DNA from: a virus
Lineage: Duplodnaviria; Heunggongvirae; Uroviricota; Caudoviricetes
Strand: one strand, 5' to 3'
DNA: 64,000 bases
Virus record (IMG/VR): IMGVR_UViG_2574180019_000006
The notes under the pieces are model-generated. The model worked only from the letters and a program-made list of their open reading frames with translations. It ran no database searches and had not been told where the DNA came from. The translations under genes were made by a program, and so were the position numbers. Positions 44,036 through 59,701 of this stretch are shown in pieces (the stretch's first letter is position 1; every line of letters starts with the position of its first letter).

Positions 44036-44269
44036 ATGATGAAAAGATTATTTCTAACAATAGCTGTTGTTCTCTCTCTTACTGGCTGCCAGAAATTGCC
44101 GACACCTATATGTTACGGTGAGGCTATCATTGGTGGACAGGAGACAGTCATACCCATATATGCTGTTAAAAAAGTGAACAACTATACCTTATACAAAGCG
44201 GGTAGCATCTATAACTGGCGATGGGTAGGAGTAGGTGCTTTCTCATCAGTCCGTTGCAATGCTGAATGA
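44036..44269 (+). CDS. putative lipoprotein
   Basis: Signal peptide with lipobox LTGC. Confidence 0.5.
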   Translation: MMKRLFLTIAVVLSLTGCQKLPTPICYGEAIIGGQETVIPIYAVKKVNNYTLYKAGSIYNWRWVGVGAFSSVRCNAE

Positions 44270-45633: not shown

Positions 45634-45769
45634 ACCACAAACCGCCAGCGTATTGTTCTGCGATGGAGCTGGGCCTATCTATATCAGCAATAATGATGTG
45701 ATGACCGAAGAAACCGAACGCCAAATCCTTTTTCACAATACGATGGGAGAGAGAGTTTGCGGTTGGTGA
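45554..45769 (+). CDS. outer-membrane spanin component (Rz1-like lipoprotein)
   Basis: Signal peptide with lipobox (MISGC); overlaps the 3' end of the Rz-like gene. Confidence 0.55.
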   Translation: MRRAIKYVRKMLLPFIVSCMISGCVIKPQTASVLFCDGAGPIYISNNDVMTEETERQILFHNTMGERVCGW

Positions 45770-45800
45770 TGCGAAGTTCCCCTCACTTGAGGGGAGTACA

Positions 45801-46322
45801 TTATTCTTCGAACAATTTTTCGATAGATTTTGTAGGATAGAACAAAGAACGCTCGTTGTTACCAACCAGCTGGATAAAGTCTAAACTTTTATAAAACGCC
45901 TTGGCTTTGTCATTTAACGCCTCAACGAAAAGTCCATGAATGCCTACAGCAAGAGATGCATTGTACACAACGCGCATTGCATGTGTTACAAGCATTGAGC
46001 CAAATCCTTGACCTTGAAGGGACTTGTCCAAAGCCAGCCTACCCAAAGTAACACTTGGAACATTCCGATAAGGTACCTTCTTTTGCTGGCTTCTTGAAGG
46101 TAAGGACTCCTTTTCAAAGCAGCTACCTGACAAAGTGTAATACCCTAACACTTTTGGTCTGCCTTCTTTCGTGCAAAGCACATAAGCGCGAAGAATTTTT
46201 CCCTCATGCTGCCTTTTTAAGTGGTTGGTTAAAAAGGCATTTAGTGATTCTTCACCGCAATCAAAACCATTCAAATCATAATGTTTCTCTCCAGAGAAAA
46301 TTTCTATCTTTATATTATCCAC
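45801..46322 (-). CDS. GNAT-family toxin of a type II toxin-antitoxin pair (TacT/KacT-like)
   Basis: FDCGEE, HLKRQ, GYYTLS, VTLGRLA, LQGQGFG, GLFVEALNDKA, LFYPTKSIE match the TacT/KacT family as I recall it. Confidence 0.8.
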   Translation of the reverse strand: MDNIKIEIFSGEKHYDLNGFDCGEESLNAFLTNHLKRQHEGKILRAYVLCTKEGRPKVLGYYTLSGSCFEKESLPSRSQQKKVPYRNVPSVTLGRLALDKSLQGQGFGSMLVTHAMRVVYNASLAVGIHGLFVEALNDKAKAFYKSLDFIQLVGNNERSLFYPTKSIEKLFEE

Positions 46323-46329
46323 GAGTAAA

Positions 46330-46599
46330 CTACTCCATGCTTTTCAGACGATCAGCAGCTCGTTTCAGCTTGTCGTTCGGTGCCGGAGGATTGCTTATAG
46401 CGTCCATAACCAGATTCCAGGATTCTTCATTCAGAACTAGTCTACGGTGTTGCTCTATAACTTTCACGGCACGTTCAGATGCACTGCTAACCATAAACTG
46501 AGTAATGCTCTGGTTAGACATTGCGGCAGCTTCCTCGATGATGCTTTTATCGTCATCGGTTAATCTCAAATCGATGCGCTGCTTTTTTAGTGCTGACAT
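46330..46599 (-). CDS. DUF1778-type antitoxin (TacA/KacA-like)
   Basis: ATG at 46599 with AGGAGGA RBS; directly upstream of and co-oriented with the GNAT toxin. Confidence 0.7.
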   Translation of the reverse strand: MSALKKQRIDLRLTDDDKSIIEEAAAMSNQSITQFMVSSASERAVKVIEQHRRLVLNEESWNLVMDAISNPPAPNDKLKRAADRLKSME

Positions 46600-46867
46600 G
46601 TATTCCTCCTGATGGCCGTGATGTAGGAAGGCCATCAATCTCCTCTGTTCAAACTGAGTTTTCGACTCAAAAATTACTTTAAAAGGCTATAGCCCATTAC
46701 GTGTGCATTATCAAATTGTGTACGGCATATCACCGTACTTGTAATATAGATGTCATTGTTACTTTTTTCAACAGACAAATACAAGCTATGTTTGCCAATT
46801 GTTAATCACAACCTACCATTTAACCTTTACACCGCAGCCGTAGGCATTTAGGCTATATCACATATAA

Positions 46868-46883
46868 GAAAACAAGTTGTTTC
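46868..46883. promoter_or_regulatory. AAACAA-G-TTGTTT palindrome upstream of parA
   Basis: gaaaacaagttgtttc, 35 nt ahead of the parA ATG. Confidence 0.45.
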
Positions 46884-46917
46884 AGACGATAATTATATAC
46901 GCAAAGGGAACTCTCCA

Positions 46918-47586
46918 ATGACCAAGATCTTTGTGGTTGGCGGCACAAAGGGCGGGCCTGGCAAATCCACCGTTGCCCAGCAAATTGCCGTTTGCCTGAA
47001 AGTCAAAAAGAAGAAGAAGGTTTATATTACCGATATAGATATTCAGCGCACGACAACGAGCTGGTGTGAAGACCGTCGACAGAACGAAGACCTTGAGCTG
47101 ATTCCTTTTGCATACGTTCAGGATGACATCATTAAGCATCTAAAATCGCTTCAGGGTAGAGCTGAGTTTGTAGTGGTAGATGCTGGTGGCTTCGACTCCG
47201 AAATTCAGCGACAAGCGATGCTGATGGCTGACGTTATCATTATCCCGCTGCGTCCTAAGCGTCGTGATTTGAAATCTTTACGTGACATCGATCCTATTAT
47301 CGACAATGTTCGCAATGTAAACGATAAAGTGAAGGTCCGCGCGGTCATGAACCAGTGCCCGGCTTTGCCATCACAAGTGTCTCGCATTCTGGCGGCTAAA
47401 GAGATTGTTGAGACGTTTGGAATCGAGTCTGCGCCAGTCAATCTATATAACCGCAACGTCTATGATGATGCGGAAGAGTCTGGTCGTTCTATCTTTGAAA
47501 TGACCGGTAGCGAGCGCGACAAAAAGGCGGAAGCCGAGTTTGAAGAATTTGTAGATTATCTGTTGAGTCTGGAGGAAGAAGAATAA
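46918..47586 (+). CDS. parA: ParA-family partition ATPase
   Basis: Deviant Walker A GGTKGGPGKST; small ParF/SopA-like size. Confidence 0.85.
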   Translation: MTKIFVVGGTKGGPGKSTVAQQIAVCLKVKKKKKVYITDIDIQRTTTSWCEDRRQNEDLELIPFAYVQDDIIKHLKSLQGRAEFVVVDAGGFDSEIQRQAMLMADVIIIPLRPKRRDLKSLRDIDPIIDNVRNVNDKVKVRAVMNQCPALPSQVSRILAAKEIVETFGIESAPVNLYNRNVYDDAEESGRSIFEMTGSERDKKAEAEFEEFVDYLLSLEEEE

Positions 47587-47945
47587 TGTCCATGAAAATG
47601 GGTGACCTAGCAAAGCGCAAAGAGCCTGATGCACCGGCTAAGAACACAACTCCTTTGCGCCAACCAGTCAGACCACAGGGACGCCCGACTCGTGGCAAAG
47701 AGAAAATTAAAAGCCGCACAATGTCACTGGAGGACGAATACTTCGAACTGCTGGAGATGATGAAGTTCATCCCTCGCTTCGAGAAGTTCACTCGTTCTGA
47801 CGTGATTCGAGCAGCCATTTTCCATCTGGCAGAGAAGTCACCGCAGGAAATCGAGGACATCGTGAAATTGAATGAGGCGATCACCGCTGCCGATGTCACG
47901 ATGCGTACCGATGAAATCAAACGAGAGTTGATGAAGAAAGGTTAA
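47586..47945 (+). CDS. partition centromere-binding protein (ParG/ParB-like, small)
   Basis: Basic disordered N-terminus and helical C-terminus; coupled to parA. Confidence 0.55.
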   Translation: MSMKMGDLAKRKEPDAPAKNTTPLRQPVRPQGRPTRGKEKIKSRTMSLEDEYFELLEMMKFIPRFEKFTRSDVIRAAIFHLAEKSPQEIEDIVKLNEAITAADVTMRTDEIKRELMKKG

Positions 47946-47950
47946 AAATC

Positions 47951-47981
47951 ATGCATTGGCGCGTACATTGCGCCAATGCAT
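47951..47981. promoter_or_regulatory. 31-bp palindrome (12-bp arms ATGCATTGGCGC / GCGCCAATGCAT)
   Basis: Immediately after the partition operon; no T run follows. Confidence 0.5.
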
Positions 47982-48075
47982 AACTACAGTGTCAGCTTTA
48001 TGCCGCGCTAACACTATGTTCAGTCCTAACCACCCCAACCTTCACAAAAGGGCTACCGTAGCTTGGTGGCTTCTT

Positions 48076-50655
<2,580 letters not shown>

Positions 50656-50701
50656 TAGCGGAAACGGAATGGGGAAACTCATTCCGTTTTTGTTTATCGC
50701 C

Positions 50702-59141: not shown

Positions 59142-59216
59142 GATGGTGTAGCTCAGCGGTAGAGCAGTTGGCTGTTAACCAACTGGTCGGTGGTTCGAAT
59201 CCACCCACCATCGCCA
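59142..59216 (+). tRNA. tRNA-Asn (anticodon GTT)
   Basis: Cloverleaf folded by hand: 7-bp acceptor GATGGTG/CACCATC, anticodon loop CTGTTAA, T loop TTCGAAT, encoded CCA. Confidence 0.85.
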
Positions 59217-59218
59217 AT

Positions 59219-59294
59219 GCCGGTTTAGCTCAGTTGGTAGAGCGCCTGCCTTGTAAGCAGGATGTCAGCGGTTCGATCCCGTTAACCGGCACCA
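59219..59294 (+). tRNA. tRNA-Thr (anticodon TGT)
   Basis: Acceptor GCCGGTT/AACCGGC, anticodon stem CCTGC/GCAGG with loop CTTGTAA, T loop TTCGATC, encoded CCA. Confidence 0.85.
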
Positions 59295-59614
59295 ACACAA
59301 CAGGTAAGAGCATTGGGCGAATCGGCGATACTGACCCACAAGGCCGTAAATCGATAGAGTCAGACCAGTGCTCTTACCGTTGTGAGGAAGTGCAGCTCTT
59401 TGAAGCAACCAGAAGATAAGCATCTGGCTTCACAACACAACGATAAGATCATTACGGTTAATCGTCGTTCATGTGCACAATGACTGGTCGAAAGGTAGTG
59501 ATCTTACCGTTGTGATGAATGCACAGGCTGATGTGCCGCAACTACAGTAGTGCGCGCTTTGCGGGGCTTGCTACAACCCTGTGTCGGAGTTCAGCACCGA
59601 CCATCACAATAGCT

Positions 59615-59701
59615 GGAGAGTAGGGAGCATGGTGCTCAAGCGGTCTTGAAAACCGTCCCATTGCGCAAGCGATGATGGTTCGATTCCATTACTCTCCGCC
59701 A
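59615..59701 (+). tRNA. tRNA-Ser (anticodon TGA), class II with long variable arm
   Basis: Acceptor GGAGAGT/ACTCTCC, anticodon arm CGGT-CTTGAAA-ACCG close to the E. coli tRNA-Ser arm I recall, T loop TTCGATT; D-arm is irregular. Confidence 0.6.

Follow-up and report, generated by a model that had tools for sequence, protein, structure and literature searches.

An AtaRT/KacAT-Type Toxin-Antitoxin Operon in a Cargo Slot between the Lysis and Partition Genes of an SSU5-Like Phage-Plasmid with blaCTX-M-15

The stretch of DNA analysed here (64,000 nucleotides of the IMG/VR virus record IMGVR_UViG_2574180019_000006, Caudoviricetes; the whole stretch is called the window below) belongs to an SSU5-like (pECOH89-type) phage-plasmid of E. 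coli with ISEcp1-blaCTX-M-15, and at 45801-46599 it carries a pair of minus-strand genes encoding a GNAT acetyltransferase toxin and a DUF1778 antitoxin. Judged from the sequence, the pair almost certainly forms a type II toxin-antitoxin operon, intact and autoregulated, of the same kind as AtaRT and KacAT, and by analogy with characterised systems its main role is, on balance, probably stabilization of the plasmid by post-segregational killing. The family was already known, as a preliminary description of this DNA had remarked, and its structures, operator, and chemistry are established. The pair adds nothing new to toxin-antitoxin biology, since the near-identical locus of phage Cyrano was named “KacT toxin/antitoxin” in a 2023 paper (PMC9928086); only the observation that the pair occupies an exchangeable slot between the lysis and partition genes could lead to something new. 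The element is a clinically relevant vehicle, namely, a pECOH89-type phage-plasmid with blaCTX-M-15 which is non-conjugative, and a working addiction module, if true, would help explain the persistence of resistance-bearing plasmid-prophages without antibiotic selection.

Identification of the Toxin-Antitoxin Pair

Both open reading frames lie where the preliminary description had placed a GNAT/DUF1778 pair, on the minus strand, and Pfam and PDB matches bear out the designation. The antitoxin gene (46330-46599, minus strand) encodes an 89 aa ribbon-helix-helix protein of the DUF1778/TacA1 family, begins with ATG (46599-46597), ends with TAG, and is preceded at 5 nt by the Shine-Dalgarno sequence AGGAGG (46605-46610, minus strand), which was read directly from the sequence. 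The toxin gene (45801-46322, minus strand) follows after a gap of 7 nt, starts with GTG at 46322, ends with TAA (45803-45801), and encodes a 173 aa GNAT protein of AtaT/KacT type. With the antitoxin gene upstream, the toxin gene downstream on the same strand, and a single promoter-like site ahead of both, the pair has the bicistronic, antitoxin-first, abutting-gene layout of the GNAT/DUF1778 class. A longer antitoxin reading frame (to 46638) was set aside, and the 89 aa form was preferred because of the strong Shine-Dalgarno sequence at 46610-46605, the alignment of KacA and AtaR from residue 1, and the 270 nt annotated by PGAP in a plasmid whose toxin-antitoxin cassette (45790-46780) matches the window at 100% identity. 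The RefSeq entries for the proteins of the pair are WP_023908317.1 and WP_001351987.1.

In the Pfam comparison the antitoxin matched PF08681 (TacA1/DUF1778; E 5.7e-26) and the toxin matched PF13508 and PF00583 (GNAT), both over the gathering cut-offs. Among PDB structures the toxin matched AtaT of E. coli O157:H7 (6gts; E 7.5e-78, gapless across residues 1-172) and KacT of Klebsiella pneumoniae (5zgn_C; E 4.9e-74), whereas 6g96 and 7ak7 gave 1e-18 to 1e-19 and TacT (5FVJ) 5.4e-11; the antitoxin matched KacA (E 6.6e-42) and AtaR (E 1.3e-40). Matches of this strength far exceed what chance would give. The identity of the toxin to AtaT is 68.6%, and that of the antitoxin is 80% to KacA and 76% to AtaR. 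The earlier label “TacT/KacT-like”, for which alignment to characterised proteins had been proposed, is therefore right but can be refined: KacT is close and TacT is distant, and membership of the TacT branch (TacT, TacT2, and TacT3) is ruled out, AtaT and KacT being more than 60 orders of magnitude closer by E-value. In the classification of Bikmetov et al. the AtaT/KacT branch is clade A, while TacT belongs to clade D (PMC9177977).

Since the alignment with AtaT has no gaps, AtaT residue numbers can be used directly for the toxin. It retains G108 (acetyl-CoA binding) and Y144 (the catalytic tyrosine) together with most of the residues the mutation of which lowered AtaT toxicity (PMC7595197), namely, L27, F30, H34, R37, S76, S78, K81, K82, Y85, and R95, while R71K and K77R are conservative substitutions. 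In the antitoxin R8, D10, and R12, which touch DNA in KacA, and M65 and I68, which are required there for neutralisation (PMC6698736), are likewise retained.

The pair was further examined in 47 phage-plasmid copies, that is, 46 relatives and the window, and the toxin reading frame is intact in all of them. The ratio of nonsynonymous to synonymous substitution rates (dN/dS) in nine representative pairwise comparisons was 0.05-0.16 for toxin and antitoxin genes alike. Such low values, together with the retention of the operator described below across diverged alleles, argue for maintained activity of the pair, as far as comparison of sequences can indicate.

Control Region of the Operon

The palindrome GTACGG-N7-CCGTAC at 46720-46738 (spacer tgatatg on the minus strand) is a predicted operator of AtaR/KacA type, with half-sites shared with kacAT and ataRT. 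The motif occurs once in the window against 0.05 occurrences expected, and the same half-sites with the same 7-bp spacing are present both in the 27-bp kacAT operator of the KacAT-DNA crystal, TGTACGGTTATTAACCGTACA (PMC6698736), and upstream of ataR in O157:H7, TGTACGGTGACATACCGTACA. In the phage-plasmid copies the half-sites are exact in 45/47 and one base off in the other two, while the spacer sequence varies and the distance from operator to ATG, which is -139 in the window, ranges from -139 to -241 (-45 in chromosomal ataRT). Constant half-sites with a drifting spacer and a drifting distance are what one would expect to see where selection acts on a protein-binding site.

A sigma-70-like promoter is predicted at 46743-46771 on the minus strand (-35 TTGAAA, 17-nt spacer, and -10 TATATT; 10/12 consensus matches), and the predicted operator begins 4 nt downstream of its -10 box; in the diverged group-C alleles, too, -35, -10, and operator can be recognised in this arrangement. 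From the predicted transcription start near 46736 to the ATG the leader measures about 135 nt, with its bulk at 46611-46719 (minus strand). Neither the leader nor the intergenic sequence gave a sign of a regulatory RNA (fold z-score -0.42; the sole Rfam match was a chance-level microRNA), and nothing beyond short chance-level repeats was found in a search for large repeats or iterons in 46560-46960. Short tandem repeats (GAAAACT)n of variable number lie between operator and Shine-Dalgarno sequence in the diverged alleles of loci L084, L086, L083, L077, and L075, and the spread of the operator-to-ATG distance from -140 to -241 is due to the variation of this repeat number; the window leader has one GAAAACT-type copy, inside a small hairpin. 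At the other end of the operon a GC-rich hairpin found by a terminator-like scan (45776-45797), situated where Rz1 and the toxin gene converge, is a possible two-way terminator with a weak T-run.

Compared as a whole with AtaR-AtaT of E. coli O157:H7 (PDB 6GTS, 6AJM, and 6GTP), the operon shares the gapless GNAT toxin with its two key residues G108 and Y144, the related antitoxin, the antitoxin-first bicistron, and the palindromic sequence of the predicted operator beside the -10 box. It differs in its location on a phage-plasmid, in the GTG start of the toxin gene, in its leader of about 135 nt, and in four toxin residues discussed below, whereas AtaRT is chromosomal (between livJ and panM), has an ATG toxin start, and shows a distance of 45 nt between operator and start codon. 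With KacA-KacT of Klebsiella pneumoniae (PDB 5ZGN and 5XUN) it shares the closest antitoxin (80%) with all five functional residues named above and the operator half-sites; however, KacAT is chromosomal, its operator spacer sequence is unlike that of the window, and the antitoxin differs from KacA by Q70N and R77K, at both of which it agrees with AtaR.

Exchangeable Cargo between Rz and parA

The preliminary description had located the pair between the lysis cassette and the partition operon, and this location is correct, with the holin, endolysin, and Rz/Rz1 genes on one side and a divergent ParF-like parA on the other. It had also taken the placement beside parA as a link to maintenance, and this part of the argument is weak, since the point where the late/lysis and plasmid regions meet is a generic slot for cargo, in which the pair can be replaced or absent, as it is absent from SSU5.

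The content of the interval between Rz and parA was classified in 80 IMG/VR loci having this ParA at 89-100% identity, 79 of which were informative. A DUF1778/GNAT pair occupies the slot in 42/79 loci (53%) and falls into three groups by identity of the toxin to that of the window: at least 93% (19/79), about 91% (9/79), and 61-64% with an antitoxin identity of 83-88% (14/79). A two-gene module of SSU5_031/032 type on the plus strand is found in 30/79 loci, a single gene of about 400 aa in three, a single 183-aa gene in two, and an empty slot in the remaining two. The pair is accordingly accessory and not core, because it is missing from roughly half of the close relatives, and this fits the fact that toxin-antitoxin systems are assigned to the SSU5 supergroup's “shell” genome (PMC7969092).

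The homology with relatives lacking the pair ends at about 45751-45766 and restarts at 46811-46820, and from these breakpoints the mobile unit may be drawn at about 45767-46810. This variable cargo cassette contains the hairpin, toxin, antitoxin, leader, operator, and promoter, while the 107 bp upstream of parA are part of the conserved backbone. Among elements with 100% identical ParA some carry the pair and some carry the SSU5_031/032-type module; the slot is therefore a site of recombinational swapping. Since the cassette is self-contained and sits in a slot that elsewhere has unrelated cargo or none, adjacency to parA is weak evidence of function and reflects the cargo-swap slot, which is a useful by-product of the analysis. 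Exchange also happens inside the operon, as follows from the mosaic patch in the 5' part of the toxin gene: of 27 nucleotide differences between the window toxin and the common Cyrano-type allele 26 (8/9 amino acid changes) lie within toxin nt 4-249 (46073-46319), one site differs in the final 270 nt of the gene, and the antitoxin gene shows no difference at all.

The rarer contents of the slot were also inspected. In loci L054 and L056 the slot protein is encoded on the minus strand, measures 397-403 aa, bears the R-x4-H motif (YQLRSKLVHGR) in its C-terminal part, and has no family match. The 183-aa slot protein (L076 and L080) is acidic and belongs to phrog_28020, of unknown function, while the empty slots (L074 and L078) measure 0.31 kb.

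Expected Mode of Action and Role

The mechanism, all steps of which are taken from characterised homologues, is almost certainly that of an AtaT/KacT-type pair. The operon would be transcribed from its own sigma-70-type promoter with the antitoxin first, and the antitoxin is probably in excess because the toxin comes second, after the 7-nt gap and from a weak GTG codon. The N-terminal ribbon-helix-helix dimer of the antitoxin would bind the GTACGG-N7-CCGTAC operator overlapping the transcription start, while its C-terminal part would wrap the toxin to give a toxin2-antitoxin4 complex, with the operon repressed and the toxin inactive; for KacAT the T2A4 complex and conditional cooperativity have been described (PMC6698736). 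When antitoxin synthesis stops, Lon-type proteolysis would clear the antitoxin, and the free toxin dimer would transfer acetyl from acetyl-CoA to the alpha-amino group on charged tRNAs. The targets expected for clade A are Gly-tRNA and tRNAs with hydrophobic amino acids, including the initiator Met-tRNA, whereby translation and growth would halt; AtaT, KacT, and AcaT, the clade A toxins, do acetylate Gly- and hydrophobic aminoacyl-tRNAs and stop translation (PMC9177977). Daughter cells losing the low-copy plasmid-prophage would thereby be arrested, which amounts to post-segregational killing alongside the ParF-like partition system.

The post-segregational killing reading given in the preliminary description is plausible by this analogy, and plasmid stabilization of this kind appears somewhat more probable as the main role of the pair than all other roles. 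As expected of an addiction module, the pair is carried on an extrachromosomal low-copy replicon and its orthologues in phage Cyrano are transcribed in the lysogen. The Cyrano copy (toxin 94% and antitoxin 100% identical to the window) is annotated as “KacT acetyltransferase-type toxin” and “putative antitoxin”, and in the lysogen of strain LF82 the two genes were transcribed 35- and 60-fold over background (PMC9928086). The functional model for the window pair is GmvA-GmvT of Shigella pINV, a plasmid-borne GNAT-type pair which stabilises both pINV and a test vector by Lon-dependent post-segregational killing (PMC6519299), although it acts mainly at 21 C and its carrier is a virulence plasmid of conjugative type, not a phage-plasmid. 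Phd-Doc of the phage-plasmid P1 is likewise a type II addiction module on a plasmid-prophage (PMC7969092), but its proteins and chemistry are unrelated, and it is a persistent gene in P1-like elements, whereas the pair is accessory in SSU5-like ones. TacA-TacT of Salmonella (PDB 5FVJ and 7AK7-9) shares the GNAT plus DUF1778 architecture and the chemistry of aminoacyl-tRNA acetylation; however, it is distant (E 5.4e-11), and TacT of clade D is specific for Gly-tRNA, in contrast to the broad specificity of the clade A toxins AtaT and KacT.

Several points weigh against stabilization as the main role. The toxin gene starts with GTG in all 47 phage-plasmid copies, and in the plasmid-borne KacT4 clade the native GUG start gives too little toxin for growth arrest (PMC9431474). 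The precedent for stabilization, GmvT, belongs to clade D and not to clade A (PMC9177977). At tRNA-contact and pocket positions the toxin is unlike AtaT (R40E, N41G, and K79Q, and the pocket residue A26S), and its target range may therefore not equal that of AtaT. The pair is moreover dispensable for this type of element, being absent from SSU5, PhiR41_1, and 37/79 relatives. Finally, it is conceivable from the sequences that chromosomal AtaR blunts killing via cross-repression or cross-neutralisation (anti-addiction).

The last point concerns many potential hosts, as an annotated ataRT is present on 1626 chromosomes in a set of 5426 complete E. coli genomes (about 30%), and chromosomal ataRT (e.g., L004, 1477-2277) has the same operator half-sites as the pair and an antitoxin 76% identical to that of the window. 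Cross-interaction between chromosome and plasmid has been shown for other GNAT pairs (PMC9431474). Genomes having both the plasmid copy and chromosomal ataRT number at most 71 against about 90 expected if the two were independent, but these are rough totals and too crude to interpret. Outside phage-plasmids, related pairs with about 68-70% DNA identity are also found on many conjugative enterobacterial plasmids (285/574 matching records).

A less likely explanation is that the cassette is chiefly used in conflicts among mobile elements, either through abortive infection directed at other phages or through exclusion or displacement of related phage-plasmids with another allele or other slot cargo, with stabilization as a secondary effect. 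The cargo-swap slot would suit such a function, as it has at least five alternative contents among elements with ParA 89-100% identical, and so would the three allele groups with toxins down to 62% identity, the recombination patch restricted to the opening 250 nt of the toxin gene, and the expression of the pair as a moron in the lysogen. A gene for a Cor-type phage-exclusion lipoprotein (44036-44269, plus strand), directly upstream of the holin gene, also stands just before the slot, so a superinfection-exclusion function is already present there. However, neither protein matched a PADLOC defence model at E ≤ 0.1, a literature search of titles and abstracts returned no DUF1778/GNAT pair reported as an anti-phage system, and the alternative cargos of the slot are likewise without known defence function or PADLOC match. 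The dN/dS values are also low, with no diversifying selection seen in the pairs compared.

A somewhat smaller probability is given to the explanation that the cassette is selfish or near-neutral cargo, or a moron benefiting the host through stress or antibiotic tolerance, with low toxin output from the GTG codon and little effect on plasmid retention. The GTG start of all phage-plasmid toxin genes agrees with this explanation in view of KacT4, which is non-toxic with its native GUG (PMC9431474), and KacT is said in the introduction of the same study to induce antibiotic tolerance (PMC9431474). The accessory status (53% of relatives have the pair) points in the same direction, and the wide occurrence of chromosomal ataRT shows that the module persists in the absence of a plasmid role. 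Against it stand the strong purifying selection on both genes, the operator kept across diverged alleles, and the intact catalytic residues.

A part for the pair in the lytic programme, for example, by antisense late transcription from the convergent lysis genes that frees the toxin and shuts off host translation, is very improbable: although the toxin gene converges on Rz/Rz1 with no more than a hairpin of weak T-run in between, the same lysis genes are present in relatives without the pair, the cassette has its own predicted promoter and operator, expression occurs during lysogeny, and translation arrest would block the phage late proteins too.

The Alternative Two-Gene Module

The commonest alternative cargo lies outside this window and consists of two genes which overlap by about 16 nt and encode proteins of about 130 and about 250 aa, respectively. 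This SSU5_031/032-type module matched nothing in Pfam or PADLOC, and its PHROG families have no known function. The 250-aa protein gave an hhalign probability of 0.2% against GNAT/DUF1778-type toxins and an empty PDB profile search, and it is linked to GNAT toxins by predicted fold only. The partner of about 130 aa was considered as a ribbon-helix-helix-type antitoxin, which was not supported; its model also resembles part of the GNAT/Hat1 fold. The two genes are kept adjacent in Pectobacterium, Pantoea, and Erwinia, while the Dickeya copy forms an isolated islet among housekeeping genes. That the commonest alternative cargo is a two-gene module with predicted acetyltransferase-like folds is a second useful by-product of the analysis.

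It may tentatively be suggested, with the chances rather against it, that the lysis-partition junction of SSU5-like phage-plasmids is a dedicated exchange site for alternative two-gene modules of acetyltransferase fold. If the SSU5_031/032-type pair were a new acetyltransferase-based addiction or conflict module, the window cassette and that pair would be two solutions equivalent in function, and it could depend on the module carried, together with the chromosomal ataRT of about 30% of E. coli, which phage-plasmids displace each other or get lost.

The Phage-Plasmid and the Neighbouring Genes

The assignment of the window to its element follows the comparison with the 111,954-bp circular plasmid pPRO_A-1374-6M-A_2, positions 47421-111954 of which correspond to window positions 1-63875 with an identity of 99.95-100%; the remaining 125 bases of the window are unmapped. 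Matches to the 3.7 kb surrounding the pair occur in 737 plasmid records, which are mostly non-mobilizable, and also in the phages Cyrano, CMS-2020a, PhiR41_1, and SSU5. The host element is itself a non-mobilizable, IncFIB-typed phage-plasmid and belongs to the pECOH89 family of CTX-M-15 phage-like plasmids (PMC3999498).

As annotated in Cyrano, in SSU5, and in the RefSeq plasmid, the plus-strand genes upstream of the pair are cor and those for holin, endolysin, and Rz/Rz1. On the other side the ParF-like ParA (46918-47586, divergent from the pair; 222 aa) has ParF of TP228 as its best PDB match (E 1.2e-10), and it is followed on the plus strand by a 119-aa gene (47586-47945) with a weak ribbon-helix-helix-like NCBIfam match over residues 54-79. 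By its position this gene more likely encodes a small ParG-like centromere-binding partner of the ParF-like ParA; the label “RelE/ParE putative toxin” that it has in the Cyrano record received no support from Pfam, NCBIfam, or PDB. A second toxin-antitoxin system, hicAB, as found in Cyrano, is absent from the window. Three tRNA genes for Asn-GTT, Thr-TGT, and Ser-TGA (59142-59701, plus strand) are also carried, and none corresponds to a preferred substrate of AtaT or KacT, the aminoacyl-tRNAs reported as preferred being those of Gly, Trp, Tyr, Phe, and Met (PMC9177977).

The resistance region (47946-50700) is located just past the par genes and includes, among the reading frames of the window, the ISEcp1 transposase gene (48262-49524) and blaCTX-M-15 (49720-50655). 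Relative to pPRO_A-1374-6M-A_2 the window has a deletion of 645 bp next to ISEcp1, with the junction at 48075/48076, which takes away most of a GIY-YIG (LEM-3-like) gene.

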